Source of the DNA: Chloroflexota bacterium
Lineage (GTDB): Bacteria > Chloroflexota > Limnocylindria > Limnocylindrales > CSP1-4
Direction: 5' to 3'
NCBI GenBank assembly: GCA_034666965.1
Contig: JAXDKT010000161.1
Span: forward strand, 5,603-69,602
DNA length: 64,000 bases
Positions 3,857 to 37,687 of this stretch are shown here, piece after piece (position 1 is the first letter of the stretch; each line of letters begins with the position of its first letter). Position numbers and translations under genes: made by a program. The notes beneath the pieces are model-generated. The model was not told where the DNA came from. It saw only the letters and a program-made list of their open reading frames with translations, and made no database searches.

Positions 3857-4690
3857 TCACTCGTCGAGGATGGACTCCCCCCGAGCCAGGGCCCGGTCGG
3901 GCGACGCCCACATCCGCACGCGCAGGAGCCAGAAGTCGCGCACGGCCCTGAGGATGACCTGCGGGTTGGCCCCCGTTGGCGACCCCGCCGTGCGTGGATA
4001 GTGGGGAACGCCGACCTCGACCACGGTTCGGCCCAGCGTTCGCAGGCGGATCAACAGCTCCGCCGACAGGAACGCGCCGCCCGATTCGACCCGGATCCCG
4101 TGCAAGGCTTCGCGGCGGTAGAGCTTGCAGGCGCAGTCGACGTCGGTCGCCCGCAGCCCGAAGAAGATCCGATTGGCCAGCCGGTAGCCCCGGGCGTAGA
4201 TCGTCCGGATGAGCGGGTCGGCCCGGCGAATCCGGTACCCGATCACGACCGCCGGCCGATCCCGGGCCGACATGCGCTCGGTCAGGCGACCCAGGTCGGC
4301 GATCCTGAACTGCCGATCCCCGTCGGTGAACGCCACGAAACCGAACCGGGCGGCGTGGAACCCGGACCGCAGCGCCGCGCCATAGCCCAGGTTGGTCGGG
4401 TGGTGGACGGCCCGGACGATTCCGGGATGGGCCGCGGCCAGCCGGTCGGCGATCTCCCCGGTCCGATCGCGTGACCCGTCGTCGACGACAACGATCTCGA
4501 ACCGATCGGCCAGCGTCGGCAGGGTGGCCAGCGCCTCGATCACGAGCGGCTCGAGGTTGTCTTCCTCGTTGTGGGCCGGAAAGAAATAGGACAGCTCCGG
4601 GACCCGCACGGGGTCACCGGTGGGCGCGCCTTCCTGTTGGCCAAGGTGTGCGTCGCTCACGGCGGGAATGTCTCCGGGGTGCTCATCCAA
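3857..4690 (-). CDS. GT2 polyprenol-phosphate mannose synthase-like glycosyltransferase (DPM1/Ppm1 catalytic-domain type, stand-alone)
   Basis: GT-A motifs: FPAHNEEDNLEPLV, VVVDDGSRDRTGEI, NLGYGAALRSGF, FTDGDRQF (DxD-like). No fused Lnt-like membrane domain. TTG start at 4690. Confidence 0.8.
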   Translation of the reverse strand: MDEHPGDIPAVSDAHLGQQEGAPTGDPVRVPELSYFFPAHNEEDNLEPLVIEALATLPTLADRFEIVVVDDGSRDRTGEIADRLAAAHPGIVRAVHHPTNLGYGAALRSGFHAARFGFVAFTDGDRQFRIADLGRLTERMSARDRPAVVIGYRIRRADPLIRTIYARGYRLANRIFFGLRATDVDCACKLYRREALHGIRVESGGAFLSAELLIRLRTLGRTVVEVGVPHYPRTAGSPTGANPQVILRAVRDFWLLRVRMWASPDRALARGESILDE

Positions 4691-4796
4691 GTCGACGGCC
4701 GGCCTCGAGCGTCCGACGAAGGACCCTGCGCTATACTCCGCTCCACCTCAGCGCTCGTGCAGGAGACGGACCTCTCTGGCAGTCGTTCATCCCGGT

Positions 4797-22000: not shown

Positions 22001-22941
22001 CCCTCCGGCCGGACCGGCCGCCGTCCCAGCTGCCGGCCATCGACGGGTGGCCCTTGGTCCGGCGCCGGCTGGTCGAGCTGGCGGCGGTCCCCGGACGGCT
22101 GCTCGTCGTGACCGACTTCGATGGGACGCTCGCGCCCATCGCCCTCGACCCGATGGCGGTCCGGATCGAGCCGCGCGGTCGGTTGGCCCTCCGTCATCTG
22201 GCCAGCCTCGCCGCGACGCAACCGGAGCGACTCAAGGTGGTCGTGCTCAGCGGCCGGACCGCGCACGACGTGGCGACGCGGGTCCGCGTGGGCGGGGTCG
22301 AATACCACGGGGATCATGGCATCCAGGCCGGCTACCTGCCCCGCGGGGTACCGGCCGAGCGGCTGGTGGCGAGCTCGGATCCGGCGCTCGCTCGACTGGT
22401 CGACGACGCCCGAGCGCTCGGCGTCGCGGTGGCGACCGCGCTCGGTCGGCCCGACTGGCTGTTCGTCGAGGACAAGGGCCCATCGGTCGCGTTCCACTTC
22501 CGGGCGGCCCGGGACCCGGCCGTCGCGGGGGGCCTGGTCGAGTCAGCGGTCGAGGCCGCCCTGGCCCGCCAGAAGGACCGCGATGGACAGTCGGTCTTTG
22601 CCCGGTTCGATGGCCGGCGGATCGTCGAGCTCCGTCCGGAGGGCGCGGGTGGCAAGGGCGCCACCCTGAGCCGCCTCCTCGCCGTGGGCGAATTCGACGC
22701 GGCCATCGTCCTGGGCGACGACCGCAGCGATGCCGAGGCGTTCGCCGTGCTCGCCGCCGCGCGCGCCGAGGGCCGCCTGGCGGCGAGCCTGGCGCTGGCG
22801 GTCCATGGCGCCGCCGAGACGCCGGCCGAGGTGGTGGCCGCCGCCGATCTGATGGTCGACGGGCCGCGTCAGGCGTCGCGTGCGCTGGCGACGCTGGCCC
22901 GGGCCATCGACGGCCCGTCACGGGCCAGGAGCCGGGACTAG
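21997..22941 (+). CDS. HAD-IIB trehalose-6-phosphate phosphatase-like hydrolase (OtsB family)
   Basis: GTG 21997 overlaps the TlpA stop (GTGA). LLVVTDFDGTLAPIA (motif I), VVVLSGRTA (motif II), LGDDRSDAEAF (motif IV). Confidence 0.7.
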   Translation: MTLRPDRPPSQLPAIDGWPLVRRRLVELAAVPGRLLVVTDFDGTLAPIALDPMAVRIEPRGRLALRHLASLAATQPERLKVVVLSGRTAHDVATRVRVGGVEYHGDHGIQAGYLPRGVPAERLVASSDPALARLVDDARALGVAVATALGRPDWLFVEDKGPSVAFHFRAARDPAVAGGLVESAVEAALARQKDRDGQSVFARFDGRRIVELRPEGAGGKGATLSRLLAVGEFDAAIVLGDDRSDAEAFAVLAAARAEGRLAASLALAVHGAAETPAEVVAAADLMVDGPRQASRALATLARAIDGPSRARSRD

Positions 22942-24407
22942 GAGACGAGTGCCCTGGCGGCGTCCTCGACCACGCGCACGAGGGGGCCGGGGTAGAGCCC
23001 CAGCAGGACGGTCAGGATCGCGGTCCCGGCCAGGCCCAGTCGGAGCAGGCCGCTCTTCTCGACCGCGGGCACGTCCTTGCCCTCGCGCATGTACATGTAG
23101 ACCACGACGCGCAGGTAGTAGAACGCAGCGACCGCGGCGTTGAGCACCAAGATGACCGCCAGGATCCCGGCCGGGCCGCCAGCCTCGACGGCGGCCAGGA
23201 CCACGTAGGCCTTGGCCAGGAACCCGGCCGTCGGCGGGATGCCCGTCAGCGACAGCAGGAAGAGGGTCATCAGGAGCGCCAGGGCCGGCTCGCGCCGGCC
23301 CAGACCCGCGAACGTCTCGATCGCGCTCGACACGCCCCGCCGGCGCTGGAGCGCGGCGACCACGGCGAACGCGCCCAGGTTCATGAAGCTGTAGGCGGCG
23401 CCGTAGTAGAGCAGGCCCTCGAGCCCGGCAATGCTCGAGTGGGGGCTGGCCCAGGCGGCCAGTCCCACGAGCATGTAGCCGGTATGCGCGATCGACGAGT
23501 AGGCCAGCATGCGCTTGACGTTGTCCTGGCTGATCGCGACGAGGTTGCCGAGCGTCATGGTGACCGTGGCCAGGACCACGATGACCATCAGCCAGTCCTC
23601 GCGAAGCGGCCCCAGGGCGCCAACGAACAGGCGCAGGATGAGCGCAAACGCACCGATCTTGGGCCCGACCGACAGATAGCCGGTCACCGGGGTGGGCGAG
23701 CCCTGGTACGCGTCCGGGGTCCAGTAATGGAACGGCACGGCGGCGATCTTGAAGGCCACGCCGGTTGTCAGGAAGGCCAGGCCCATGGCCAGCCCCGCCG
23801 ACAGCGGGGCGGTTCCGGCCACGATCTTGCCCAGCTCGGTCGCCACGACGTCAACCCGGGTCGAGCCGGTCAGGCCCCATATGAAGGCGAGGCCGAACAG
23901 GAAGATGGCTGAGCTGAACGAGCCCAACAGGAAGTACTTGATGGCACCCTCGGTCGACAACGCGTCGCGCTTGGCGAAGCCGGCCAGCAGATAGCCCGGC
24001 AGGACCATCAGCTCGAGACCCAGGAACAGCACCAGGAGGTCAGCCGCGGCCGAGATGAGGAGGGCCCCGCTCATGGCGAAGATGAGCACCGCCGCGAACT
24101 CGGCCAGGGGCAGGTCGCGCGCCGCGAGATAGTCCTTGGCGAAGACGATCGTCAACGCGACGACGGCCACGAAGAGCAGATCCAGGAATGTGGTCAGGGC
24201 GTCGAGCCGATAGGACCCTCCGAATGCCTCGCCCGGGGTCGCTCCGGTGATCAGGGTCACGATCGCCACCCCGGCCAGCCCGGCGAGGCTGATCGCAAGC
24301 GTCGCCCGGCGCGACCCCGGCACGATCAGGTCGACCACGATCAGCGCACCGGCGACGAGGACCGCCGCTACGAACGGCGCGATCGTGGTCAGGTCCTGGA
24401 CGGTCAT
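22938..24407 (-). CDS. nuoN: NADH-quinone oxidoreductase subunit N
   Basis: 14-TM antiporter-like subunit. Last gene of the nuo operon. Confidence 0.9.
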   Translation of the reverse strand: MTVQDLTTIAPFVAAVLVAGALIVVDLIVPGSRRATLAISLAGLAGVAIVTLITGATPGEAFGGSYRLDALTTFLDLLFVAVVALTIVFAKDYLAARDLPLAEFAAVLIFAMSGALLISAAADLLVLFLGLELMVLPGYLLAGFAKRDALSTEGAIKYFLLGSFSSAIFLFGLAFIWGLTGSTRVDVVATELGKIVAGTAPLSAGLAMGLAFLTTGVAFKIAAVPFHYWTPDAYQGSPTPVTGYLSVGPKIGAFALILRLFVGALGPLREDWLMVIVVLATVTMTLGNLVAISQDNVKRMLAYSSIAHTGYMLVGLAAWASPHSSIAGLEGLLYYGAAYSFMNLGAFAVVAALQRRRGVSSAIETFAGLGRREPALALLMTLFLLSLTGIPPTAGFLAKAYVVLAAVEAGGPAGILAVILVLNAAVAAFYYLRVVVYMYMREGKDVPAVEKSGLLRLGLAGTAILTVLLGLYPGPLVRVVEDAARALVS

Positions 24408-24422: not shown

Positions 24423-25979
24423 TTACCGGACCAGCACGTGGAATGCGGCCACGGTGCCGCCCTGGACGCTCTCGAGGACGGTCGTCACCGACGTCTGGAC
24501 CAGGTTCAGGATGAGACCGGGGAACAGTCCGAAGACGACGATCAGGGCCCCCAGCGGGGCGAGGGTGAGCAGCTCGACCGGACGGATGTCGGTCAGGTGG
24601 CCGCCCAGCCCCGTCAGGAACTCCGACAGCTCGCCGGTGAACAGCCGCTGGAACATCCACAGCAGGTACGCGGCGGCCAGGATCATGCACGAGGTCGCGA
24701 CCGCGGCCACGTAGGGGTTGGCCGTGAAGGCGCCGACCAGGACGAGGAACTCGCCGACGAAGCCGGACAGGCCGGGCAGGCCCACGCTCGCGAACACGAA
24801 GAAGCCGAACGCCGCGGCATAGACCGGGGTCCGGCCCGCCAGGCCGCCGAGCTTGGCGATCGTCCGGTCGTGGGTTCGCTCGTAGATCACCCCGACCAGC
24901 AGGAACAGGGCCCCGGTGATCAGTCCGTGGTTGACCATCTGCAGGATCGCGCCCTGCATGCCCTGCTCCTGAAACACGAAGATCCCCAGGGTCACGAAGC
25001 CCATGTGGCTGACCGACGAATAGGCGATGAGCTTCTTGAGGTCCGGCTGGACCAGGGCCACGATCGCGCCGTAGATGATCGCGATGAGGCTGAGCACGAT
25101 GATCCACGGCGCAAAGGTCCGGGCCGCATCCGGGAACAGCGGCAGCGCGAACCGGATGAAGCCGTAGGCGCCGAGCTTGAGCATGATCGCGGCGAGGATC
25201 ACCGAGCCCGCCGTGGGAGCCTCGACGTGGGCATCCGGCAGCCAGGTGTGGAACGGGAACATCGGGACCTTGATGGCGAAGGCCAGGAAGAAGGCCAGGA
25301 AGGCGAACAGCTGGAGGCCGTTGGCGAAGCCGACGGTCCCGGCGAACGTCCGCAGCGACTCGAAGTCAAAGGCATTGGTCCACGAGCCAGTCGCGGCCTG
25401 GTAGGTGTAGGCGGTGGCCAGGATGGCGACCAGCATCAGGAGCGAGCCGACCAGCGTGTAGAGCACGAACTTGATGGTCGCGTAGATCCGGTTCGATCCG
25501 CCCCAGATCCCGATGATCAGGTACATCGGGACGAGGACGACCTCCCAGAACACGTAGAACAGGAACAGATCGAGGGCCACGAACACGCCGATCAGCCCGA
25601 CCTCGAGGATGAGGAACGAGATCATGTATTCCTTGAGGCGCTCCTTGATCGGGCCGAACGAAGCCAGGATGCTGATCCACGACAGGGTCGTGGTCAGGAC
25701 CACCAGGACCGCGCCCAGCCCGTCGACCCCGACCTTGTACTGGACTCCGAAGACGGGGATCCAGTCAACCCGCTCGACATACGAGAAGCCGCTCGCCAGG
25801 GGGTCGAACCCGATCAGCATCAGCAGCGACAGCCCGAACGACACGAAGGCCGCGCCCAGGGCGGTCCAGCGCACGGCGCGTTCGTTGCCCTTGGGGATGA
25901 ACGCGATGATCAGCGCCCCCACGAGGGGGACGAACGTGACCAGGCTGAGCAGCGGCAGGCTCGACCCCTCGACGATCAT
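24423..25979 (-). CDS. nuoM: NADH-quinone oxidoreductase subunit M
   Basis: Track ORF trimmed to ATG 25979 (MIVEGSSLPLLSL...). The ATGA overlap matches the nuoL stop. Confidence 0.9.
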   Translation of the reverse strand: MIVEGSSLPLLSLVTFVPLVGALIIAFIPKGNERAVRWTALGAAFVSFGLSLLMLIGFDPLASGFSYVERVDWIPVFGVQYKVGVDGLGAVLVVLTTTLSWISILASFGPIKERLKEYMISFLILEVGLIGVFVALDLFLFYVFWEVVLVPMYLIIGIWGGSNRIYATIKFVLYTLVGSLLMLVAILATAYTYQAATGSWTNAFDFESLRTFAGTVGFANGLQLFAFLAFFLAFAIKVPMFPFHTWLPDAHVEAPTAGSVILAAIMLKLGAYGFIRFALPLFPDAARTFAPWIIVLSLIAIIYGAIVALVQPDLKKLIAYSSVSHMGFVTLGIFVFQEQGMQGAILQMVNHGLITGALFLLVGVIYERTHDRTIAKLGGLAGRTPVYAAAFGFFVFASVGLPGLSGFVGEFLVLVGAFTANPYVAAVATSCMILAAAYLLWMFQRLFTGELSEFLTGLGGHLTDIRPVELLTLAPLGALIVVFGLFPGLILNLVQTSVTTVLESVQGGTVAAFHVLVR

Positions 25980-27955
25980 CGGCCGCTCACGATCACGAGG
26001 TACGAGCCGGCCATCACGATGAGCCCGATGGCGATCCCCAGGGCGTAGTTCTGGACCCGTCCCGTCTGGACCCGGCGCAGACCCGTGCCGAGCCCGCGGG
26101 CGAGCGCCCCCAGCCCGTTGACGGTGCCGTCCACGATCGTTCGGTCGAACCACCAGCAGGCCGTCGCGATCCGCCCGCCGACCCGGATGAAGAGCAGGTC
26201 GTTGAGCTCGTCGAACCACCACTTGTTGAGGGACGCGCGGTACAGGAAGCGGGTCGCGGCGTTCGCCTCGGCGATGGCGGTGACCTGCTCCGGACGCGGC
26301 GCCCGACGCAGGCCGAGCAGCTCGACTCCGAAGAAGTGCCAGGCGACCAGGATGCCGACGGTGGCGATGCCGACGCTGGCCAGGATCAGCGCCCCGTCGA
26401 TCCCGAACAGGCTGAACGCCGCCTCCGGATGGCCCGAGGCCGCGAGCGTCTCGGCAAAGACCGGCTCGAGCCAGGTGTGGATGAGGCTGTTCCCGAAGGG
26501 CAGACCCAGGACCAAGCCCAGGAAGATCGTGGGGATGGCCAGGATCACCAGGGGCACCGTCATCGACGGCGGCGACTCGTGGACCAGGGGCTCGATCTCG
26601 GGCGCGACATGGCTCGGGCCCCAGAAGGTCATGCCCATCAGCCGGAACATGTAGAAGGCGGTCATCCCGGCGACCACGAAACCGATCGCCCACACGACCA
26701 GGAAGCCGTTCTTGAACGCCTCGGCCAGGATCTCGTCCTTGCTGAAGAAGCCCGCCAGGGGTGGGATGCCCGCGATCGCCAGCGAGCCGATGAGCGTCGT
26801 CCAGTACGTGATCGGGATCCTTCGCCACAGGCCGCCCATCCGGCGCATGTCCTGCTCTTCGTGGACGGCGTGGATGACCGAGCCCGAATCGAGGAAGAGG
26901 AGGCCCTTGAAGAAGCCATGGGCCATCAGGTGGAAGATTGCGGCGGTCCACGCCCCGACTCCCAGCGCCGCGAACATGTAGCCGAGCTGGGACAGGGTCG
27001 AGTAGGCCAGCACGCGCTTGATGTCGGTCTGGGTGAAGGCGATCGAGGCGGCCAGGATCGCGGTGAAGATGCCGATCGCGGCGACCACGACCATCGCGCT
27101 CTGGGCGTGGCCGAAGATCGGGTTGGCCCGAGCCACCAGGTAGACCCCGGCGTTGACCATCGTCGCGGCGTGGATCAGGGCCGAGACCGGGGTGGGCCCC
27201 TCCATCGCGTCGGGCAGCCAGACGTGGAGCGGGAACTGGGCGCTCTTGCCGGCCGCCCCGCAGAACACCAGCAGGGCGATGGCCGTGATCGTGGGCTGGT
27301 CGAGCTCGCCGATCCGGGCCAGGACCTCCTGGACATTGAGCGTCCCGAGGCTGACGAAGATGAGCATGATCCCGAGGGCGAAGCCGACGTCACCCACCCG
27401 GTTGACGATGAATGCCTTCTTGCTGGCCAGCGCGGCGCTGCGTTTGCGGTACCAGAAGCCGATGAGCAGGTAGCTCGACAGACCGACCAGCTCCCAGGCC
27501 ACGAAGATCACCAGGAAGTTGTCGGCAAGGACGAGCAGGAGCATCGAGAACATGAACAGGTTGAGGTAGGCAAAGAAGCGCCACGTGCCCGGGTCGTGGC
27601 TCATGTACCCGATCGAATAGATGTGGACGAGCATCCCGATCGTGGTCACCACGATGAGCAGGCAAGCCGTCAGCGCGTCGACGTGGAAGCCGGCCTCCAC
27701 CACGAACTTGCCGGCCGGGATCCACTGCCACAGGCCGATCGAGTGGCCGTGCTCCCCGAACGGCTCGGCCCGGCCAAGGGCCGCGGCCGCGACGACCATC
27801 GCGGCCACCCAGCTGACGACCACGGCGCCGATCGGCAGCGCGCTCGCAGCATTGCGGCCGGAGCGGGCCTGCAGCCGCCGCCCGAACAGGGCGGTGAAGG
27901 CGAAACCGGCGAGGGGCAGCGTCGGAACGATCAGGATGAGGAGGTCGTAGGGCAT
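25976..27955 (-). CDS. nuoL: NADH-quinone oxidoreductase subunit L
   Basis: 659 aa. Antiporter-like core plus long C-terminal helix region. Confidence 0.9.
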   Translation of the reverse strand: MPYDLLILIVPTLPLAGFAFTALFGRRLQARSGRNAASALPIGAVVVSWVAAMVVAAAALGRAEPFGEHGHSIGLWQWIPAGKFVVEAGFHVDALTACLLIVVTTIGMLVHIYSIGYMSHDPGTWRFFAYLNLFMFSMLLLVLADNFLVIFVAWELVGLSSYLLIGFWYRKRSAALASKKAFIVNRVGDVGFALGIMLIFVSLGTLNVQEVLARIGELDQPTITAIALLVFCGAAGKSAQFPLHVWLPDAMEGPTPVSALIHAATMVNAGVYLVARANPIFGHAQSAMVVVAAIGIFTAILAASIAFTQTDIKRVLAYSTLSQLGYMFAALGVGAWTAAIFHLMAHGFFKGLLFLDSGSVIHAVHEEQDMRRMGGLWRRIPITYWTTLIGSLAIAGIPPLAGFFSKDEILAEAFKNGFLVVWAIGFVVAGMTAFYMFRLMGMTFWGPSHVAPEIEPLVHESPPSMTVPLVILAIPTIFLGLVLGLPFGNSLIHTWLEPVFAETLAASGHPEAAFSLFGIDGALILASVGIATVGILVAWHFFGVELLGLRRAPRPEQVTAIAEANAATRFLYRASLNKWWFDELNDLLFIRVGGRIATACWWFDRTIVDGTVNGLGALARGLGTGLRRVQTGRVQNYALGIAIGLIVMAGSYLVIVSGR

Positions 27956-27958
27956 CGG

Positions 27959-28270
27959 CTACTGCCGCATCGCGTCGTACTCGTCGACCAGCGGCGTCCG
28001 CCGGTTGCGGAAGATGGCGATCACGATGGCCAGCCCGACGGTCGCCTCGCCGGCCGCCACGGCGATCACGATCAGGGCAATGATCGATCCCTGCTCGCGC
28101 AGGAGCGGGTTGAACGCCCCGAAGGCGACGATCGCCAGGTTGACGGCGTTGAGCATCAGCTCGATTGACATGAGCATGCTGATCGCGTTGCGGCGGGCCA
28201 GGAAGCCGAACGTGCCGATGCAGAACAGCAGCGCCGACAGGATCAGGTAGGCGTCCAGCGAGTTGATCAT
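27959..28270 (-). CDS. nuoK: NADH-quinone oxidoreductase subunit K
   Basis: 103-aa three-TM protein MINSLDAYLILSALLF... with a conserved Glu in the TM. ATG 28270 overlaps the nuoJ stop. Confidence 0.9.
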   Translation of the reverse strand: MINSLDAYLILSALLFCIGTFGFLARRNAISMLMSIELMLNAVNLAIVAFGAFNPLLREQGSIIALIVIAVAAGEATVGLAIVIAIFRNRRTPLVDEYDAMRQ

Positions 28271-28818
28271 CCGCGGTCGGTCGCTTCCCCCTGGTCGAGC
28301 TCGCGCTTGGCCAGGTAGATGCCACCGATCACGGCGGCCAGGAGCAGGACGCTGACGACCTCGAACGGCAGCACGAAATCCCGGAACAGGATCCGGGCCA
28401 GCTCCGCGGTCCCCACCTGGAGCCGTTCCGCCGCCGCCCCCCAGTCGGTGGCACCGATGACCAGGACCAGGATCAGCGCCAGGATCACGGCCAGGATCGC
28501 CGCCGGGACGGCCTGGGTCTGGAACACCAGCCGGACCGGGGCGGCCTTGGTCTGGGTGAGCATGATCGCGAACAGGACCAGGACGCTGATGGCGCCGATG
28601 TAGATGAGCACCTGAGCGCCGGCGATGAGCGGCGCGCCGAGGATCACGTAGATCCCGGCCAGCGCCCCGAAGCACACGATCATCGCCAGGCCGCAGCGGA
28701 TGATGTCGCGCATCACCACGACCAGCAGGCCCGAGCCCAGGAGCAGCGCGGCGAAGGCCAGGAACAGGAGGTCGTTCCAGCTCAGCCCGATGAACGGGAT
28801 CGTGTCCGGGATCGCCAC
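28267..28818 (-). CDS. nuoJ: NADH-quinone oxidoreductase subunit J
   Basis: 183-aa five-TM protein. Position and composition typical of NuoJ. Confidence 0.85.
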   Translation of the reverse strand: MAIPDTIPFIGLSWNDLLFLAFAALLLGSGLLVVVMRDIIRCGLAMIVCFGALAGIYVILGAPLIAGAQVLIYIGAISVLVLFAIMLTQTKAAPVRLVFQTQAVPAAILAVILALILVLVIGATDWGAAAERLQVGTAELARILFRDFVLPFEVVSVLLLAAVIGGIYLAKRELDQGEATDRG

Positions 28819-28836: not shown

Positions 28837-31446
28837 CTACTCGTGGTGGGCGTGGCGGCCGCCCGCGCCACCGTGCCCATTCCCGCCATGGGCGCCGCCG
28901 TGCCCGTTGGGGCCGTTGGGACCGGCGGCGATCGACGGTGGCAGGACCGGCAGCAGCCGGCTCGGGTCGGGCAGGCGACCGGCGACCCGGGCTCGCTCCA
29001 TCCAGTCCGCCTCGCGCCGGATGTAGGTCGCCTCGGTCTCCATGTCGACCGCGGCCAGGGCGATGAGGTCGATCATCGGCTCTTCCCGGCTGGTATGCGA
29101 CAGCTCGAACTGATCGCTGTGGCGCAGGGCGTCATAGGGGCAGGCGTCGACGCAGATGCCGCACAGGATGCAGCGGCTCTCGTCGACCTCGTACTTCTCC
29201 AGGACCCGCGGCTTGGGCATCAGCGCCCCGGTCGGACAGGTCTCCGCGCAGCGCCCGCACGACACGCACGGCGTGTCGTTGAGGCTCATGTCGAGGGGTG
29301 TCGTCACCAGCGTGTCGAAGCCGATTCTCATGAAGTCGTAGCAGGCCGCGCCGACGACCTCGGAGCAGACCTGGGCGCAGCGGCCGCAGTCGATGCAGCG
29401 CGACGGCTCGCGCAGGATGAACGCGTGGCTGTCGTCCCGGATGTAGTCGTGGTTGACCCCGGTGAACCGGTTCTCGGTGACGCTCCGGTAGCCGGCGCCC
29501 TGGTGATACGCGGGCTCGAGCGTCTTGAGGGTGGTCCCGTACTCGATCCCGAGCCGGCGCAGGTCGCAGAAGCCGATCGCCTCGCAGGTGCACTGGAGAC
29601 AGCGGGTCGACTCGGCCACGGCCTCGGCCGGCGTGTAGGGGATCTCGTACTCGACGTAGCTCTTGTTCCGGATCTCGGCGTCCATCGCCTTCATCCGGTA
29701 GCGAGGCTCCTTGACCTCGCTGGTGAAGGGCACGATCGACAGGAACTCGGGCTGCGGCTCGGCCAGGGTCTGGCGGGTCTTGATCGTCGACAGGTCGAGA
29801 CCCTTGAGATAGGCGTCGGCGGCGTATGACGCCCGGCGGCCCTCCGCGATGGCCTGCACGACCGTCGCCGCGCCGATCCGGACGTCGCCCGTCCCGAACA
29901 CGCCCGCTCGGTCGGTCTCGAAGGTGACCGCGTCGGCCTTCAGCCGGCGCTGCTTGGTGGGCTGGGGCCCCTCGGAGCCGGGCCCGATCCAGGACAGGTC
30001 GGGGCCCTGGCCGATGGCCAGCAGGACCCGATCGCAGTCGATCGTGAACTCGGTCCCGGGCATCGGCTCCGGCCGACGCCTTCCGGAGGCGTCCGCTTCG
30101 CCCAGCTTGTTGCGGATGAACTCGACCCCGGTCACCTTGCCGGCCTCATCGACGATGACCCGGGTGGGAGCGGCCTGGAAGATGGCCTGGACGCCTTCTT
30201 CGATGGCCTCGTGGACCTCGTTCGCGGCCGGCATGTCCTTCATGTCCCGGCGGTAGACCAAGGTCACCTCGCCGGCCCCCTGGCGGATCGACGTCCGCGA
30301 GCAGTCCATCGAGGTGAAGCCACCGCCGATGACCACGACCCGCTTGCCGGCGTGACCCGGGTAGGGCAGGCCGAGGGTCGCGGTCTGGAGGTACTCCAGC
30401 CCGTCGATCACGCCATCGGCATCCTCGTTGGGAACCCCCAGCTTGTTGGTGTCGTAGCAGCCGATCGCGACCAGGACCGCATCGAAGCCTTGGCCCTGCA
30501 GGTCGTCGAGGGTGAAGTCGCGCCCGAGACCCTGACCGCACACGATCTTGCCGCCGAGCCGCGTCACCGACTCGTACTCGGCCTCGAGGACCTCGACCTT
30601 GGGCAGACGATACTGGGGGATCCCGTAGCGGAGCATCCCGCCGGGCGCCGCGTCGCGCTCGAAGACGGTCACCTCGTGGCCGGCCAGGAGGAGGTAGTAG
30701 GCGGCGCTCATGCCGGCCGGACCGGAGCCGATGACGGCGGCCCGTCGGCCACTCCTGGCCTGGGGCTCGAAGGGCAGCGGCGGATCCAGTCCGTCATCGA
30801 GCATCGCCTTGAGGACCTGGTCGCCGGCGTAGCGGTGGCTGTCCCGGATGGCGATCGCCTCGTCGACCTCGTCGCGCCGGCAGTGCTCCTCGCAGGGCGC
30901 CGGGCAGACCCGGCCGAGCACGCTCGGGAAGGGGATCGTCCGCTTGAAGATCCGGGTCGACTCGCGCCAGTCGCCCTCGGCGTTCTGCTTGAGGAAGCCC
31001 GGGATGTCGATGTGGCTGGGGCACTTGTTCTGGCACGGCGGCAGGCAGTAGGCGTTGTGGTCGCTGAAGATCAGCTCGAGGTTGGTCGCCCGCAACCGGC
31101 GCAGCTCCTCGGTCTGGGTCTGGACCTTCATGTCCGGCTCGCACGCTCGCGAGCAGCTGATCGGCGGACACTCCTCCCCCTCGACCTCGACCACGCACAT
31201 CCGGCACGCGCCAAAGCCGGGCAGCTTGGGTTCGTAGCACAGGGTCGGGATCTCGATCCCGTTGTCGCGACAGACCTCCAGGATGGTCTGCCCCGCGTGA
31301 CCATCGACGACCCGGCCGTCGACCTCGATTCGGAAGCCGGGACTGGCCTGCGGCCGCTGCGGCGCCGGGGTCGTCAGGAGCCGTTCGGCAAGCGAATCCG
31401 GCTGGTCCTGGGGCTGGGCGTCGGGTCTGATGATCAGGTCGGTCAT
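28837..31446 (-). CDS. 869-aa fusion: NuoG/HydA-type N-terminal Fe-S domain ([2Fe-2S] plus His-Cys3 [4Fe-4S]), GltD/NfnB-type FAD/NAD(P)H oxidoreductase, and NuoI-type 2x[4Fe-4S] ferredoxin C-domain. It occupies the nuoG/nuoI slot.
   Basis: ATG 31446 (MTDLIIRPD), 11 nt after the nuoF stop. [2Fe-2S]: PTLCYEPKLPGFGACRMCVVEV...ISCSRAC. H-x3-C-x2-C-x5-C: HNAYCLPPCQNKCPSH. GltD-like: RAAVIGSGPAGMSAAYYL, GKRVVVIGGGFTSMDCSRTSIRQGA, VFGTGDV. Ferredoxin: CIDCGRCAQVC, CVSCGRCAETCP, CILCGICVDACPYDAL...FELSH (NuoI C-terminal-like). Gly/His-rich tail. Confidence 0.8.
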   Translation of the reverse strand: MTDLIIRPDAQPQDQPDSLAERLLTTPAPQRPQASPGFRIEVDGRVVDGHAGQTILEVCRDNGIEIPTLCYEPKLPGFGACRMCVVEVEGEECPPISCSRACEPDMKVQTQTEELRRLRATNLELIFSDHNAYCLPPCQNKCPSHIDIPGFLKQNAEGDWRESTRIFKRTIPFPSVLGRVCPAPCEEHCRRDEVDEAIAIRDSHRYAGDQVLKAMLDDGLDPPLPFEPQARSGRRAAVIGSGPAGMSAAYYLLLAGHEVTVFERDAAPGGMLRYGIPQYRLPKVEVLEAEYESVTRLGGKIVCGQGLGRDFTLDDLQGQGFDAVLVAIGCYDTNKLGVPNEDADGVIDGLEYLQTATLGLPYPGHAGKRVVVIGGGFTSMDCSRTSIRQGAGEVTLVYRRDMKDMPAANEVHEAIEEGVQAIFQAAPTRVIVDEAGKVTGVEFIRNKLGEADASGRRRPEPMPGTEFTIDCDRVLLAIGQGPDLSWIGPGSEGPQPTKQRRLKADAVTFETDRAGVFGTGDVRIGAATVVQAIAEGRRASYAADAYLKGLDLSTIKTRQTLAEPQPEFLSIVPFTSEVKEPRYRMKAMDAEIRNKSYVEYEIPYTPAEAVAESTRCLQCTCEAIGFCDLRRLGIEYGTTLKTLEPAYHQGAGYRSVTENRFTGVNHDYIRDDSHAFILREPSRCIDCGRCAQVCSEVVGAACYDFMRIGFDTLVTTPLDMSLNDTPCVSCGRCAETCPTGALMPKPRVLEKYEVDESRCILCGICVDACPYDALRHSDQFELSHTSREEPMIDLIALAAVDMETEATYIRREADWMERARVAGRLPDPSRLLPVLPPSIAAGPNGPNGHGGAHGGNGHGGAGGRHAHHE

Positions 31447-31457
31447 CGGGCGCCTCG

Positions 31458-32795
31458 TCAGGCCCGTCCGGCGAGGGCCACCGCGATCGGGTGACACACG
31501 CCCGCGGGGCAGGTGCTGCGGAGGAGGTGATCGTCCAGCTCGGGCCGGAAGTATCGCATCGCGCTGGTTGTCGGAAGCGTCGCGAGCCGCTCGTGGTCGC
31601 ACAGGGCCGAGCCCACGATGTCGCTGGCCAGGTCGAGCGCCAGAGCGGCATCGCCCGGCCGGGGGGTCCCCGCGGCCATCCGATCGACGATCTCCGACAG
31701 GCGCCGCGTGCCGATCCGGCAGGGGATCGTCTTGCCGCAGGCCTGGTCGGCGCAGAACCGGGTCAACAGTCGGGCCAGATCGACGATGCAGGCTTGGTCG
31801 TCGGCGACCACGATGGAGCCCGAACCAATGTGGGCGTCGACGGCCCGAAGGGCGTCGTATTCGTAGGGCGTGTCGAGGAGGTCGGGTGGCAGGAAGCCCC
31901 CCGAAGGGCCGCCAACGAGAACGGCCTTGATCGGACGCTCGGGCTCGCTTCCGCGCCCACGAGCGTGGACGAGATCGACCAGGTCCCGCAGCTTCGTTCC
32001 GATTGGCACCTCGGCGATGCCCGCGCCGCCCGGTCCCCGGAGCTGGACCAGGATCGTCCCGGGGCTCGCCTTCGAGCCGATCGCGGCATACGCCTCAGCC
32101 CCGTGGTTCACGATCCAGGGGACCGCGGCCAGGGTCTGCACGTTGTGGACCAGCGTGGGGCGCCCGAAAAGTCCCTGCTCGGCTGGGTGCGGTGGACGTT
32201 GCTCGGGCTGCCCGCGCTTGCCCTCCAGCGCCTTGAGCAGGACGGTCTCCTCGCCCAACATGTAGGCGCCCTGAACGGGTCGGATCTCGATCCGCACCGG
32301 CCAGCCCGTCTCGACCGCGTCGGGGCCGATCAGGCCGGTCTCCTCGGCCGCGGAGATTGCTGCCTCGAGCGTCCGGATTGCCGCTTCGGCATCGGATCGA
32401 ACTGCGATGAAGCCTTGGCGGGCGTCGATCGCATAGGCCGCCAGGGCCATCCCCTCGATCACCGCGAACGGGGCCCGCTCGAGGAGCGTGCGGTCGGTCT
32501 GGACGGCGGGATCCGCGCCATAGCCGTTGGCCACGACGTAGCGACGGGCCTCGGGAGCGCTGGCTGCGGCACGCCACTTGGTCCCGCTCGGGAAGCCCGC
32601 CCCGCCGCGACCGCGCAGGCCCGAGCCGGCCACGGCGGTCACGACCTGGCTCGGGGTCATCGCTCGGACTGCGGTCTTGAGCGCCTCGAAGGCCCCGGTC
32701 CGGATCGCGCTGTCGAGATCGGTGGGATCGCCGCCGTCAGTCGCGGGCAGGAGCACCCGCGGCCAGCTCGAAGGAGTCGCGAGCAGGTTTGTCAC
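31458..32795 (-). CDS. nuoF: NADH-quinone oxidoreductase subunit F (FMN, N3 cluster), divergent
   Basis: GLRGRGGAGFPSGTKW (FMN/phosphate loop), YVVANGYGADP (NADH site, diverged), CGKTIPCRIG ... ALCDHE (N3 Cys ligands). Confidence 0.85.
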   Translation of the reverse strand: MTNLLATPSSWPRVLLPATDGGDPTDLDSAIRTGAFEALKTAVRAMTPSQVVTAVAGSGLRGRGGAGFPSGTKWRAAASAPEARRYVVANGYGADPAVQTDRTLLERAPFAVIEGMALAAYAIDARQGFIAVRSDAEAAIRTLEAAISAAEETGLIGPDAVETGWPVRIEIRPVQGAYMLGEETVLLKALEGKRGQPEQRPPHPAEQGLFGRPTLVHNVQTLAAVPWIVNHGAEAYAAIGSKASPGTILVQLRGPGGAGIAEVPIGTKLRDLVDLVHARGRGSEPERPIKAVLVGGPSGGFLPPDLLDTPYEYDALRAVDAHIGSGSIVVADDQACIVDLARLLTRFCADQACGKTIPCRIGTRRLSEIVDRMAAGTPRPGDAALALDLASDIVGSALCDHERLATLPTTSAMRYFRPELDDHLLRSTCPAGVCHPIAVALAGRA

Positions 32796-33463
32796 CGTTC
32801 GCCCGCCGGTGCGTCGTCGGCCGCGTCCGGTCGGGCGCCTCGCCCGCTGAGAGCGCCGTCGAGCGCGCCCAGGTAGGCCTCGTCCGCGCGCCCCGGCGCC
32901 GCCGCGGGAGCGCCGACCGCCAGGTGGTCGTAGTAGGTGGCCGTGCCGTAGAGCATGGCGTACCAGGCACCGGTCGACTGGCTCACCCGCTTGAGCGCCG
33001 CGACGGGAACGTAGCCGTACTCGGCCTGGATCGCGGCGAGGATCCCGAGGAGCTCCTTGGGATCGTGGTCGAAGCCCTCGAGGATTTCGTCGACGGCGTG
33101 CAGATCGATCCCGTGGAAGTGCTCATAAACCGGGTCGGGAACGGTCCGTCCGGCGCGCCGGAGGGCCGACTCCTCGCGCCGTTCGCCATAGGTCTCGGGC
33201 GGGCCCCAGTGGATCGCATAGCGGCCCTTGGTGTCGACGCCACCCATGTCGATGCACTCGACCGGGCAGGCCTGGGCGCATTGGAAGCAGGTCTCGCATT
33301 TGAGCGTCCCGTACTCGTCGTAGAGCAGCTGCAGACGCCCCCGGAACTTGGGCGGGATGCTGGCCGGGACCTCGGGATAGAGGTTGGTGACCTTGGGCTC
33401 GAAGAAGCGGCGCAGGGTCAGGGCCATGCCCCGAACCAGACCGAGTCCGGGCACGAAGCTCAT
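32792..33463 (-). CDS. chimeric 223-aa protein: NuoI N-terminal half (one CxxCxxCxxxCP motif) fused to a cysteine-less NuoE-like thioredoxin-fold N-domain
   Basis: LRRFFEPKVTNLYPEVPASIPPKFRGRLQL ... CETCFQCAQACPVECIDM is the NuoI N-terminus plus its first Fe-S motif. The second motif is absent. The C-terminal half, HAVDEILEGFDHDPKELLGILAAIQAEYGYVPVAALKRVSQSTGAWYAMLYGTATYYDHL, resembles the NuoE N-domain but carries no Cys for N1a. Confidence 0.7.
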   Translation of the reverse strand: MSFVPGLGLVRGMALTLRRFFEPKVTNLYPEVPASIPPKFRGRLQLLYDEYGTLKCETCFQCAQACPVECIDMGGVDTKGRYAIHWGPPETYGERREESALRRAGRTVPDPVYEHFHGIDLHAVDEILEGFDHDPKELLGILAAIQAEYGYVPVAALKRVSQSTGAWYAMLYGTATYYDHLAVGAPAAAPGRADEAYLGALDGALSGRGARPDAADDAPAGER

Positions 33464-33473
33464 CGGGTGGTCC

Positions 33474-34820
33474 TCATCGGATGCCGTCCACGACCAGGAT
33501 GGCCAGGGCGGTCACGAACAGGTTGAGCAGCGAAGCGGGCAACAGCCACTTCCAGGCGAAGCCCATGAGCTGATCGATCCGGACCCGCGGCAACGTTCCG
33601 CGCATCCACACGAAGAGGAATACGAAGCCATACGTCTTGGTCAGGAACCAGAGCAGGCCCACGACCCAGTCGAAGCTGAGGAATGCGAACCCGACGAGCG
33701 CCGCCACGGCCACCAGGTTGAACAGGACGAAGCCGATGACCAGCGCCTGCCACAGCTTGACCTGGCTGTTGACGAGGTAGAAGGGCAGGCCCAGGACCAA
33801 GATTCCCAGCGGCGGGATGAGCGCCAGGGCGAACAGCAGGCCGATGCCCATGCCGCTCAGATCGGGCTGGGCCACGATCGGCCAGGGCCAGTCGAAGGGC
33901 GCGTTCCAGCCGCCCATGAAGAGGGCCACCGTCAGGCCCGAGACGATGAACACGTTGACGTACTCGGCGAAGAAGAAGAACCCGAAGCGCATACCCGAGT
34001 ACTCGGTGGCGAACCCGGCCACGATCTCGGAGTCCGCCTCGGTCAGGTCGAACGGGGTCCGGTTCGCCTCAGCGGTCGCGGCGATGAAGAAGATCACGAA
34101 GGCCAGTGGCTGCCGGAAGACGTACCAGTCGAACAGGCTGCCGGACTGGTTGAGGGTGATCTGGTTGACGCTCAGGGTTCCCGACAGCAGGACGATCCCG
34201 ACCACCGACAGGGTCAGCGGGATCTCGTAGCTCACGATCTGGGCCGCCGCCCGAAGCCCGCCCAGCAGCGAGTACTTGTTGAAGCTGGACCAGCCGGCCA
34301 TCAGCAACCCGACCACGCCCAGCCCGCCCATGGCGAAGAAGTAGAGCAGCCCGATGTTGAGGTCCAGGCCGAACAGGCCGGGAGCGAACGGGACCACGAC
34401 CAGGGTCATGACGCTGGCGACATAGACCACGATCGGGGCCCAGGTGAACACCAGCGGGTCGGCCCCGGTCGGGGTGAAGTCCTCTTTCATCAGGACCTTG
34501 AGCCCGTGGACCACCGACAGCAGCGAGCCATACGGCCCGACCCGGTCGGGACCGTAGCGCAGGTTCATCAGGGCGATGACCTTCATCTCCATGTAGATGA
34601 TCAGGAAGGCCGTCGGGACGGTCATCAGCAGGATGATGGTTGCGGCCACGACGAAGCGGACGAGCGGCACGTTGTCGCCCAGGAAGGTCAGGACCACCGG
34701 TCCGACGATGACCACGGCTGCGGTCAGGCCGGCGGCCAGGACGAGCAGCAGGGGCACGGCCGTGAACACGATCTTGCCCGGCAGGGTCAGGCGGCCGAAC
34801 GTCCGACTGAGCATCGCCAT
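33474..34820 (-). CDS. nuoH: NADH-quinone oxidoreductase subunit H
   Basis: 448-aa polytopic protein with the conserved NuoH loop AGWSSFNKYSLLGGLRAAAQIVSYEI and the quinone-site EYxxxxF-like segment TEYSGMRFGFFFFAEY. Confidence 0.9.
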   Translation of the reverse strand: MAMLSRTFGRLTLPGKIVFTAVPLLLVLAAGLTAAVVIVGPVVLTFLGDNVPLVRFVVAATIILLMTVPTAFLIIYMEMKVIALMNLRYGPDRVGPYGSLLSVVHGLKVLMKEDFTPTGADPLVFTWAPIVVYVASVMTLVVVPFAPGLFGLDLNIGLLYFFAMGGLGVVGLLMAGWSSFNKYSLLGGLRAAAQIVSYEIPLTLSVVGIVLLSGTLSVNQITLNQSGSLFDWYVFRQPLAFVIFFIAATAEANRTPFDLTEADSEIVAGFATEYSGMRFGFFFFAEYVNVFIVSGLTVALFMGGWNAPFDWPWPIVAQPDLSGMGIGLLFALALIPPLGILVLGLPFYLVNSQVKLWQALVIGFVLFNLVAVAALVGFAFLSFDWVVGLLWFLTKTYGFVFLFVWMRGTLPRVRIDQLMGFAWKWLLPASLLNLFVTALAILVVDGIR

Positions 34821-35996
34821 CTACTTGTCGACGCCCCCCATGATCGGATCGAGCGAGGCCATGATCGCCATCGTGTCGGCGATGAGATTGCCCGGGGTCA
34901 GCAGCCCGACCGCCTGGAGGTGGACGAAGCTGGGGTCATGGATCCGCATCCTGAAGGGCTGGTCGGTTCCGTCACTGATGGCGTACGTGGCGTACTGCCC
35001 GCGAGGACCCTCGACCGCGGCGTAGGCCCGGCCGGGCCGGGGCCGCATCAGCCGGGGCAGCTTGGCCATGATCGGCCCGTCGGGCATCTCGTTGAGGCAC
35101 TGGTCGATGATCCGCAGGCTCTGCTTGATCTCATCGAGACGAACCAGGTAGCGCGCGAGGCAATCGCCTTCCTGGCGGGTCGGGACATCGAAGTCGAGCT
35201 CGGGATAGATGCTGTAGGGGTGCGACCGGCGCATGTCCAGGGGAACCCCGGAGGCCCGGATGTTGGGTCCGGTCATGCACATCCGGAAGGCGGTTTCGCG
35301 ATCGAGCGTGCCCAGGCCGCGCATGCGCCGGACGAAGATCTCGTTCTGATTGAGTAGGGTCTGGTTGGCCTCGATCTGCTCGGTGGCCTTGCTCATCCAG
35401 GTCCCCAGCCGGCTCATGAACTCGTGATTGAGATCGCCGTTGACGCCGCCGATCCGGAAGTAATTGAAGAGCATCCGTTGACCGGTGAGCGCGGCCAGCA
35501 GCTCGACGATGTCGTCGCGCTCGATGAAGCTCCACAGGATCGGCGTCAGCCCGCCGAGGTCGAGCGCCATCCAGCCCATGAACAGGGCGTGACTGGCGAC
35601 CCGGTTGAGCTCACCCGACAGGACCCGGATGTATTCGGCGCGGCGCGGGACCTCGACGTCCATGAGCTTCTCGAAGGCCATCACCGGGGCCCATTCGTTG
35701 AACAGCGCGCTGACGTACTCGAGCGGATCGGTGTAGGCGATGGTGTGGTGGTAGTCGGCGTTCTCGCACAGCTTCTCCACGCCGCGATGGAGGTAGCCCA
35801 GGACCGGGTCAAGGTCGACCACGCGCTCGCCCTCGAGCTTGAGCACGACCCGCAGGACGCCGTGGGTGGAGGGATGCTGCGGCCCCATGTTGACGAACAG
35901 CTCGCCGTCGCCGAGGGTGTAGAACTCGGCCTCGCGCTCGGTCCGAGGCGGATATGGCGGGATCGGCTCGAAGACGCCGATCTGCTCCTCGAGCAT
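34821..35996 (-). CDS. nuoD: NADH-quinone oxidoreductase subunit D (49 kDa)
   Basis: ATG 35996 (MLEEQIG...); GTG 36038 is an alternative. MGPQHPSTHGVLRVVLKLEGE, YLHRGVEKL, C-terminal IMASLDPIMGGVDK. Confidence 0.9.
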   Translation of the reverse strand: MLEEQIGVFEPIPPYPPRTEREAEFYTLGDGELFVNMGPQHPSTHGVLRVVLKLEGERVVDLDPVLGYLHRGVEKLCENADYHHTIAYTDPLEYVSALFNEWAPVMAFEKLMDVEVPRRAEYIRVLSGELNRVASHALFMGWMALDLGGLTPILWSFIERDDIVELLAALTGQRMLFNYFRIGGVNGDLNHEFMSRLGTWMSKATEQIEANQTLLNQNEIFVRRMRGLGTLDRETAFRMCMTGPNIRASGVPLDMRRSHPYSIYPELDFDVPTRQEGDCLARYLVRLDEIKQSLRIIDQCLNEMPDGPIMAKLPRLMRPRPGRAYAAVEGPRGQYATYAISDGTDQPFRMRIHDPSFVHLQAVGLLTPGNLIADTMAIMASLDPIMGGVDK

Positions 35997-36605: not shown

Positions 36606-37340
36606 TCAGACTCCGTCCGGGACGGTCGGCCCGATGGCGCGCTCCGGCCAGTGGCCGCGGCGCTCGAGCACGAGCTGCTGGAGCTTCATCATCCCGTAGA
36701 TGAGGCCCTCCGGCCGGGGCGGACAGCCCGGCACGTAGACGTCCACGGGCATCACCCGGTCGATCCCCTGGATCGTCGAGTAGCTCCGCTTGTAGCGTCC
36801 GCCCGAGCAGGTGCAGTCCCCCATCGCGACGCACCACTTGGGTTCGGGCATCTGTTCCCACAGGCGGACGAGCGGGCCGGCCATCTTGGTCGTCAGCGTG
36901 CCGGCCACGATCAGGACGTCGGCCTGGCGCGGGCTGGCCCGGAACGGGAACATGCCCCAGCGATCCATGTCGTTCTTGGACGTCGCCGCCGACATCATCT
37001 CGATGGCACAGCAGGCCAGGCCCGACAGGAGCGGCCAGAGGCTGTTCGCCCGGATCAGGTCGAGCACGACGTCGGCCTTGGTCGGGATGACCTCGAGGGC
37101 ACCCCAGCGAGCGTCGTCGTGACGGCCGGCGTCGCTGGCTGCGTACTCGCGCAGATGAGCGGCGTCGGACGTGCCCGCGGCGCTGTACGCGGCCGGCTCG
37201 GCCGATTGCCAGAGCGTGTTCGGGACCACGATCGGGGCCATCGGGTCGCGATCGCCGGCGACCGTGAGCGAGCGCTCGTCGGTCGGCTCGGCGGCTTCCA
37301 CGCCGGCCGGCCCGGTCGCGCCCTCGGGCGTCAGCGCCAT
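36606..37340 (-). CDS. nuoB: NADH-quinone oxidoreductase subunit B (N2 cluster) with an approx. 70-80-aa acidic/Ala-rich N-terminal extension
   Basis: SLWPLLSGLACCAIEMM, CTCSGG, GCPPRPE (N2 ligands). Core preceded by MALTPEGATGPAGVEAAEPTDERS...; internal ATG (MAPIVV) at 37241 is an alternative start. Confidence 0.85.
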   Translation of the reverse strand: MALTPEGATGPAGVEAAEPTDERSLTVAGDRDPMAPIVVPNTLWQSAEPAAYSAAGTSDAAHLREYAASDAGRHDDARWGALEVIPTKADVVLDLIRANSLWPLLSGLACCAIEMMSAATSKNDMDRWGMFPFRASPRQADVLIVAGTLTTKMAGPLVRLWEQMPEPKWCVAMGDCTCSGGRYKRSYSTIQGIDRVMPVDVYVPGCPPRPEGLIYGMMKLQQLVLERRGHWPERAIGPTVPDGV

Positions 37341-37687
37341 GTCAGGACACCCTTGCGCCAGGCGTAGGCCAACCCCAGCAGGAGGATCCCGACGAACACG
37401 AGCATGCTCACCAGGCCGCCCAGGAGCAGGTCCCGGAAGACGATCGCCCAGAGGTAGATGAAGATCACCTCGATGTCGAACGCCACGAACAGCAGGGCGT
37501 AGATGTAGAACGACAGGCCGAATCGACCGTGGGTATCGCCGTACGTGTCAATGCCCGACTCGTAGGGCAGGCCCTTGTGGCCGTCGCCACGGTTTCGATG
37601 GGAGATGAGCCAGGCCGCGCCGATGGTCACGATGACGAACGAGACGCCGGCGAAGGCGAACCCGACGACGTACCAGATCCCGGTCAA
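37331..37687 (-). CDS. nuoA: NADH-quinone oxidoreductase subunit A
   Basis: 118-aa three-TM protein; first gene of the nuo operon. Confidence 0.85.
   Translation of the reverse strand: MTGIWYVVGFAFAGVSFVIVTIGAAWLISHRNRGDGHKGLPYESGIDTYGDTHGRFGLSFYIYALLFVAFDIEVIFIYLWAIVFRDLLLGGLVSMLVFVGILLLGLAYAWRKGVLTWR

Follow-up and report, generated by a model that had tools for sequence, protein, structure and literature searches.

Where is NuoI in a complex I operon that has no intact nuoI gene? The question is raised by a nuo operon in a 64,000-nt stretch of contig JAXDKT010000161.1 (assembly GCA_034666965.1, a Chloroflexota bacterium), referred to here as the window. Open reading frames (ORFs), profile matches and translations place this operon on the minus strand at 22.9–37.7 kb. 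NuoI, called Nqo9 or TYKY (NDUFS8) in other organisms, is the 2x[4Fe-4S] subunit of complex I whose clusters N6a and N6b lie between NuoG and NuoB. The core genes nuoA, B, C, D, H, J, K, L, M and N are all found in the one operon, as they are in related loci, and the order is nuoABCDH-[I'::E']-F-[G::I'']-JKLMN. A motif scan of the whole 64 kb found no intact NuoI. An original prediction, made from the DNA alone, held that NuoI is split, and this is borne out by profile and PDB matches: the N-terminal half (I') lies on a 223-amino-acid (aa) protein, where it is joined to a NuoE-like domain (E'), and the C-terminal half (I'') lies at the end of an 869-aa fusion protein. How the domains are arranged, that the halves complement each other, and their conservation and synteny are direct observations. 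We consider it fairly probable that an NAD(P)H-oxidising module of the Stn/NfnABC type sits inside the former nuoI of an 11-subunit complex I, and that the two halves rebuild N6a and N6b in trans.

The 223-aa protein has three main parts: it begins with the NuoI N-terminal half, from which a conserved linker leads to a four-helix domain corresponding to the N-domain of NuoE. In profile searches, residues 9–80 matched positions 13–85 of 180 in NF004536 (E = 7.6e-16) and positions 1–66 of 121 in TIGR01971 (E = 1.7e-13, 50.2 bits), in both cases only the N-terminal half of the profile. The same residues matched residues 15–86 of E. coli NuoI (7awt_I, E = 4.9e-12) in a search of the PDB. About 90 N-terminal residues had been predicted to resemble NuoI, and this alignment to NuoI profiles and solved NuoI chains confirms the likeness over residues 9–80. 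The NuoI-specific segment that precedes the first cluster motif, an amphipathic helix with YPE...RGR, is present, and it is followed by a single CxxCxxCxxxCP motif (C56-C59-C62-C66-P67). The half ends in the loop '...ETYGERRE'. An ordinary NuoI has two such motifs in one polypeptide; here the second NuoI motif is on the 869-aa protein. The whole window contains only three CxxCxxCxxxCP motifs, of which the 869-aa protein accounts for two and the 223-aa protein for one.

The second NuoI motif was found, as had been proposed, at the C-terminus of the 869-aa protein, in a segment that matched positions 71–117 of 121 in TIGR01971 (E = 4.8e-12, 45.5 bits). When the C-terminal 127 aa were searched, the first nine NCBIfam matches were all to NuoI or NdhI, and StnC and NfnA were not among the 60 listed of the 89 PDB matches. 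The third cysteine motif was also considered as part of the FdhF-like domain of the Stn/Nfn enzymes; this was rejected on the same two results, which together indicate that the motif is derived from NuoI. Once spliced, the two halves aligned as one stretch to positions 1–117 of 121 in TIGR01971 with 95.4 bits, approximately the sum of 50.2 and 45.5 bits. The spliced sequence (residues 1–97 plus the C-terminal segment) also aligned to residues 15–130 of E. coli NuoI and to mitochondrial TYKY with E values of ~2e-19, compared with 5e-12 for the N-terminal half alone, and was collinear with canonical NuoI proteins at 30–41% identity. The break point corresponds to the loop between the two ferredoxin half-folds.

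Residues 125–181 of the 223-aa protein matched positions 2–58 of 145 in PF01257 (NuoE; E = 5.7e-07), scoring 29.9 bits against a gathering score of 24.8. The 223-aa protein alone and a minimal spliced NuoI were each folded as a single chain. Other chimeras (I'E' joined to residues 640–869 of the G fusion, I'E' joined to the C-terminal half, and a permuted order) were left unfolded because MAFFT placed the G fragments or canonical NuoI C-terminal halves on the wrong cysteine motif or on the linker. In the AlphaFold model of the 223-aa protein, the four-helix E-like domain was modelled with predicted local distance difference test (pLDDT) values of 91–96, and it superposed on the N-domains of NfnC, HydC and StnA at 1.1–1.3 Å over 63–66 residues. 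The original prediction had described a cysteine-less NuoE-like segment with a helical/thioredoxin fold; the helical N-domain without [2Fe-2S] ligands stands, but the thioredoxin-like domain is missing altogether and is not merely stripped of its cysteines. No thioredoxin-like domain with the four N1a cysteines was detected after residue 181 by sequence or profile, and the model contains helices only. The tail that follows (residues 182–223) is 42 residues long with 27% mean identity across species; a helix at 190–206 was modelled with pLDDT 67–72, and only the last 11 residues (213–223) fell below 50.

Judged from its sequence, the module between the NuoI halves is of the Stn/NfnABC type (Bfu family); one of its subunits is NuoF-like and another combines [2Fe-2S], GltD-like and polyferredoxin parts. 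The closest solved structures to the 869-aa protein were 9bov_A (5.9e-157), 8oh5_C (StnC, 2.6e-137) and 9n5u_A (NfnA, 8.5e-136), with matches spanning residues 91–821 of the 921-aa ORF. Pfam searches identified Fer2_4, Fer4_20, Pyr_redox_2 and Fer4_Nqo3, giving the domain order [2Fe-2S], GltD-like insertion, cluster site and NuoG-type 2x[4Fe-4S]. The insertion itself comprises Fer4_20 (2x[4Fe-4S]), a flavin adenine dinucleotide (FAD) fold and an NADPH Rossmann fold containing 'GGGFTSMDC...VYRR'. A C-terminal FdhF-like (molybdopterin-fold) domain was not found in the 869-aa protein, the match to 9bov_A (1178 aa) stopping at residue 699 of that chain. The 869-aa protein ends, after the NuoI C-terminal half, in a Gly/His-rich tail (…GPNGPNGHGGAHGGNGHGGAGGRHAHHE) at 28840–28938 of the minus strand. 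This tail is variable in sequence, yet a His/Gly-rich tail recurs in orthologues; it may be metal-binding or disordered.

In the PDB search, the NuoF-like subunit matched NfnB, HydB and StnB better than respiratory NuoF, and its score of 341.9 bits lies below the TIGR01959 NuoF equivalog cut-off of 558.65. It contains the Complex1_51K and NADH_4Fe-4S domains only, with flavin mononucleotide (FMN)-loop and N3-type motifs present. Bifurcation requires the [2Fe-2S] cluster of BfuC together with the N-terminal [2Fe-2S] and C-terminal 2x[4Fe-4S] clusters of BfuB (PMC9304861, PMC11829005). Neither the two BfuB cluster regions nor the BfuC [2Fe-2S] site was found in the window. The enzyme encoded there is therefore predicted not to be bifurcating.

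These features can be combined into a candidate mechanism. A three-gene module would have been inserted in the former nuoI, with an in-frame fusion at either end. The upstream half of NuoI would bear the four-helix NuoE/BfuC anchor domain, seen packed on NuoF/BfuB in the solved structures of Bfu enzymes and NuoEF, and the downstream half would form the C-terminus of the [2Fe-2S]/GltD-like/polyferredoxin subunit. The two halves would then associate and restore the fold of a 2x[4Fe-4S] ferredoxin. Such a ferredoxin holds either cluster by three cysteines of one motif and the fourth of the other, so both clusters would form only if the two polypeptides pair. By analogy with T. thermophilus Nqo9, N6a would be held by C56, C59 and C62 of the 223-aa protein with C769 of the 869-aa protein, and N6b by C759, C762 and C765 of the 869-aa protein with C66 of the 223-aa protein.

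Clusters shared in this manner would give the module both an electrical connection to NuoB/C/D/H and a mechanical hold on them. Pairing would hold the 869-aa subunit on the Q-module, the E-like anchor would hold the NuoF-like subunit as well, and the paired halves would stand in for the absent C-terminal domain of NuoG in docking. Hydride would be delivered to the GltD-like FAD, with NADPH as the probable donor; a remodelled flavin site in the NuoF-like subunit may be a second point of entry. NADPH is suggested by 'VYRR', a motif typical of NADPH binders such as GltD and NfnB. Electrons would pass along the Fe-S chain of the module to the NuoG-type 2x[4Fe-4S] domain and then through N6a, N6b and N2 to quinone, the reduction of which would drive the NuoLMN/H/A/J/K proton pump. 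Soluble StnC has its terminal cluster pair on a branch that is not used (PMC10482914). Here the corresponding domain lies next to the NuoI C-terminal half and is the most conserved segment of the protein (98% identity), as expected if this pair feeds N6a.

A number of points weigh against this reading. Trans-assembly, cluster ligation, the substrate and the direction of electron flow are all read from sequence, and NADPH, most likely the preferred donor, is suggested only by the 'YRR' motif. The spliced NuoI, at 95.4 bits, is below the curated TIGR01971 cut-off of 113.05 bits, as is either half. The spliced model is poor (mean pLDDT 62, template-modelling (TM) scores 0.33–0.43), and although its top 48 PDB fold matches were all NuoI, TYKY or NdhI, this agreement is partly circular, the alignment behind the model being made of canonical NuoI sequences. 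The absence of an intact nuoI refers to the 64-kb window; these genomes may carry one, or another complex I, elsewhere. In the NuoF-like subunit, the second N3 cysteine is replaced by threonine throughout the clade (ACGKTIPCR, residues 353–399), and the flavin/nucleotide segment DEGDPGAF has become YGADPAVQ (residues ~92–105). This subunit is also the least conserved of the operon (median 64%), and its contribution is in doubt. In one related locus (L090), the third N3 cysteine is lost instead, being replaced by glycine.

The condition of the NuoF-like subunit also bears on a different account, in which the architecture is the same and the job is another: the NuoF-like flavin would be the main entry for NADH with GltD as an accessory, for example as an NADH/NADPH transhydrogenase branch, or the enzyme would run in reverse and make NADPH from proton-motive force and quinol. 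The FMN loop 'GLRGRGGAGF', 'GEET' and three of the four N3 cysteines are conserved. NNVET is changed to HNVQT, and the replacement residues, including the new 'NGYGADP' segment, are themselves conserved, which argues for a remodelled site and not a dead one. In Stn, the corresponding chain carries electrons between the two flavins, FAD and FMN (PMC10482914), and a heterotroph requires an outlet for NADH. Against this stand the altered DEGDPGAF segment and lost N3 ligand, a profile score far under the equivalog cut-off, and the low conservation of the NuoF-like subunit compared with the GltD fusion. The GltD fusion, at a median of 84%, exceeds every other protein of the operon in conservation; the flavin and NADPH motifs are kept, as is every Fe-S cysteine, and mean identity over the GltD-like insertion is 87%. 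We regard this account as rather unlikely, although it is the strongest of the alternatives.

The original prediction had left open whether the two proteins complete the clusters in trans or the 223-aa protein is a structural adaptor. In the latter case, the N-terminal half would keep the NuoH/NuoB-contacting N-terminus of NuoI as a membrane-proximal anchor, no clusters would be shared, and electrons would reach NuoB otherwise or not at all. Conservation is indeed high in the N-terminal helix and in YPE...RGR (82–83% identity), both of which are confidently modelled, and the E-like domain is clearly now an anchor without a cofactor. However, the four cysteines and the proline of the N-terminal motif and the four cysteines of the C-terminal half are invariant in every lineage examined, all eight being 100% conserved in 59–68 species. 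A pure adaptor would be free to shed them, as the [2Fe-2S] domain of NuoE and one N3 ligand were shed. The retention of all eight while these dispensable ligands were lost argues that N6a and N6b are still made, and a scan for cysteine motifs revealed no other candidate for them in the operon. Mean identity is 83% in both the N-half core and the C-terminal half, compared with 76% in the linker across 67 species and 65% in the helix after the C-terminal half, and the sequences indicate purifying selection on both halves. The ferredoxin region of the N-terminal half was modelled with pLDDT 37–47 alone and 53–83 with the C-terminal half spliced in, a rise that is no more than suggestive of pairing. 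The invariant cysteines, the equal identity of the halves and the low pLDDT of the N-terminal half alone favour completion in trans, and the adaptor is considered improbable.

Genomes were scanned, one per species, with a query built from four close sequences, and distant lineages were reached through individual proteins. At least 513 species genomes encode a relative, nearly all of them Chloroflexota / Ca. Limnocylindria, and the matches include a closed 3.1-Mb chromosome and Mb-scale long-read contigs. The identical 223-aa protein with the same neighbours was found on four independently assembled contigs from four metagenomes/samples, and the order H-[I'E']-F-[G..I'']-J was collinear in 64 of the 64 loci from other species long enough to show NuoH, both fusions, the NuoF-like gene and NuoJ. 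The split is a fixed trait of this entire class of bacteria. With the halves ~3.6 kb apart, two conserved genes between them and purifying selection on both, an assembly artefact, a frameshift or a decaying pseudogene of an intact nuoI, in favour of which no point was found, can be dismissed. Some representatives of 570–750 aa (P0132, P0155, P0162, P0172, P0196 and P0200) match the 223-aa protein at one end. These may be real I'E'-F fusions or frameshift read-through in long-read assemblies; locus L002 shows such frameshift errors.

More distant relatives (26–39% identity) retain the fusion of the NuoI N-terminal half to NuoE, with the NuoE part in different states: complete with four cysteines in P0246 and P0263 (the thioredoxin-like domain is also present in locus L083), degenerate in P0235, P0248, P0128 and P0147, and truncated in P0210, P0213 and P0232. 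The same split was found in four divergent lineages with GC contents of 49–67%. In all four, the eight cysteines are invariant and the G-like protein ends in the NuoI C-terminal half. The P0246 family comprises 1201 clusters, one labelled Thermoleophilia, and its operon reads nuoABCDH-[I'::full NuoE]-[636–643-aa BfuB]-[824-aa GltD fusion]-nuoJKLMN. The BfuB of this family has a [2Fe-2S] domain at its N-terminus, a 2x[4Fe-4S] domain at its C-terminus and an N3 site of the canonical form. The BfuB and BfuC clusters that define bifurcating enzymes are present in the related loci L083 (GCA_040769125.1) and L085, and this form might be bifurcating. Because divergent lineages share the split with a complete bifurcating-type module, the version in the window is, on sequence grounds, a reduced derivative of a complex I with a complete Bfu-type module.

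Two further loci depart from this layout. In L087 (2076–6023), the GltD-like domain forms the C-terminal part of a 1048-aa NuoF of the Bfu type and the NuoI C-terminal half is on a 265-aa HoxU-like protein, indicating that the NuoI split is independent of where GltD is placed. In L088, from a Chloroflexi metagenome-assembled genome (6481–14281), nuoABCDH-[I'E']-F-[G..I''] is followed by genes for a flavin reductase, a GYD protein and a pyruvate:ferredoxin oxidoreductase; nuoJKLMN does not follow the cluster, the membrane-arm genes being elsewhere or absent.

Complex I is thought to stem from an 11-subunit core that recruited a soluble NADH-dehydrogenase module, and how such a module was docked and wired is an evolutionary question. 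A second docking solution appears to be preserved here, with a transhydrogenase-type module spliced into the connecting ferredoxin subunit. Surviving forms make up a graded series, at one end of which the bifurcating-type module is complete and at the other much reduced. We tentatively propose an unrecognised class of complex I, in which a two-polypeptide NuoI would share both clusters and an Nfn/Stn-type input would make the enzyme a proton-pumping NADPH (or NADPH/NADH):quinone oxidoreductase, possibly the main complex I of Ca. Limnocylindria. Its L083/L085 sister, with a complete BfuBC core, would carry out flavin-based bifurcation or confurcation as a membrane-bound complex I linked to quinone, and the forms together would testify to a separate occasion on which the 11-subunit core recruited an N-module. 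If the halves share N6a and N6b, they would provide a natural split-ferredoxin junction in a respiratory enzyme, useful for studies of cluster insertion and assembly and for engineering. If the proposal is true, NADPH could feed a proton-pumping complex I in a bacterial class abundant in soils and in lakes/freshwater, and redox-balance modelling of those genomes would change. The 223-aa protein is named 'NuoE', 'ferredoxin' or 'hypothetical' in databases, and given these current names automated pipelines may score such genomes as lacking nuoI.

Table 1 Features of the nuo operon and of the split nuoI region. Coordinates are those of the 64,000-nt window; all genes of the operon are on the minus strand.
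Feature	Position	Strand	Basis
nuoA	37331..37687	-	ORF; PF00507 on syntenic genes
nuoB, tandem-Cys 'ACCAIEM' N2-type motif	36606..37340	-	Translation; PF01058 on syntenic genes
nuoC, 183 aa	36049..36600	-	Size by homologous gene calls
nuoD, 391 aa, C-terminus 'DPIMGGVDK', without NiFe-site cysteines	34821..35996	-	Translation
nuoH	33474..34820	-	PF00146, E 4.6e-103
223-aa protein (I'::E')	32792..33463	-	ORF
NuoI N-terminal half (residues 1–97 of 223-aa protein)	33173..33463	-	Profiles, PDB matches, alignment
Conserved linker 'ESALRRxGRxVPD...' (residues 98–117 of 223-aa protein)	33113..33172	-	Alignment
NuoE/BfuC-like N-terminal four-helix domain (residues 118–181 of 223-aa protein)	32921..33112	-	PF01257, model
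Variable tail (residues 182–223) and stop codon of 223-aa gene	32792..32920	-	Identity, model, translation
NuoF/BfuB-like subunit, 445 aa	31458..32795	-	Pfam, NCBIfam, PDB matches
869-aa fusion (G::I'')	28837..31446	-	Longest ORF 921 aa, with start further upstream
Start of 869-aa fusion: variable N-tail, then NuoG/HoxU-type [2Fe-2S] domain	31111..31446	-	PF13510, E 5.8e-18
GltD/NfnB-like insertion of 869-aa fusion	29767..31110	-	PF14691, PF07992; NF009454, E 6.6e-160; 9bov_A, 8oh5_C, 9n5u_A
CxxCxCx5C cluster site, then NuoG-type 2x[4Fe-4S] ferredoxin domain	29221..29766	-	PF22117
NuoI C-terminal half (residues 743–800 of 869-aa protein), including 'FELSH.SREE'	29047..29220	-	TIGR01971
Tail after NuoI C-terminal half: helix, then Gly/His-rich end and stop codon	28837..29046	-	Model, identity, translation
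nuoJ	28267..28818	-	PF00499, E 6.5e-31
nuoK	27959..28270	-	Translation; PF00420 on syntenic genes
nuoL	25976..27955	-	PF00662 and PF00361 on syntenic genes
nuoM	24423..25979	-	ORF, translation
nuoN	22938..24407	-	PF00361, E 3.4e-69

The 223-aa gene and the NuoF-like gene overlap at a GTGA (32792–32798), in which the former has its stop codon and the latter its GTG start; this suggests translational coupling of the two. The tandem cysteines of NuoB and the absence of NiFe cysteines from NuoD are the mark of a quinone-reducing Nuo. Approximately 320 bp upstream of nuoA on the same strand (38010–39221, minus), a 403-aa protein matched PF02636 (Methyltransf_28, E = 1.4e-50), the family of the mitochondrial complex I assembly factor NDUFAF7/MidA. 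The family is likewise present upstream of nuoA in locus L001, and the protein is a possible partner, conserved in bacteria, in the maturation of complex I. Elsewhere in the window, a 1862-aa ORF (4620–10208, plus) has Pfam matches only to protein O-mannosyltransferase (PMT) domains, at residues 1136–1588.

Full-text literature searches brought up no account of NuoI being split or of a nuo operon with an Nfn-type module in it; a bioRxiv hit on Asgard complex I had no bearing on the matter. The arrangement builds on known kinds, complex I and the Bfu/Stn family, and itself is seemingly undescribed. It resembles NuoI/Nqo9/TYKY in its N-terminal segment, in both motifs, in the beta-strand before motif 2 and 'FE...SREE' after it, in collinearity once spliced and in an operon position between nuoH and nuoJ; it differs in being divided between two distant polypeptides, each half having a different fusion partner. 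With StnABC/NfnABC (8oh5, 9bov/9bp5, 9n5u; PMC10482914, PMC11829005, PMC12018979) it shares the three-subunit set and the domain order of the large subunit, which is exactly that of StnC (PMC10482914). The StnABC/NfnABC enzymes are soluble and their large subunit ends in an FdhF-like domain, whereas the module in the window has the NuoI C-terminal half in its place, lacks the bifurcation clusters and sits inside a nuo operon.

The nearest published concepts are Nuo-Bfu and Mbh-Bfu (PMC9304861). In Nuo-Bfu, of Geobacter and others, a Bfu module likewise feeds a quinone-reducing, proton-pumping Nuo core and its genes are in the middle of the operon. Nuo-Bfu is predicted to have 14 separate subunits, A–N, with Bfu-type NuoEFG (Schut et al. 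2022, PMC9304861). It was reported from Deferribacteres, Proteobacteria, Planctomycetes and Nitrospirae, not from Chloroflexota or Actinomycetota, and that paper mentions no GltD domain for Nuo-Bfu and has no occurrence of NuoI (PMC9304861). Mbh-Bfu of Dehalococcoides (PMC9304861) is also from Chloroflexi and has Bfu genes amid those of a complex-I-like membrane enzyme, with an extra flavin site on one subunit, and Mbx-like operons have a GltD-type flavoprotein at the NuoI position (PMC4758237). Both are of the hydrogenase or sulfur type, whereas the enzyme in the window, with the tandem-cysteine N2 motif of its NuoB and a NuoD free of NiFe cysteines, is a Nuo of the quinone type.

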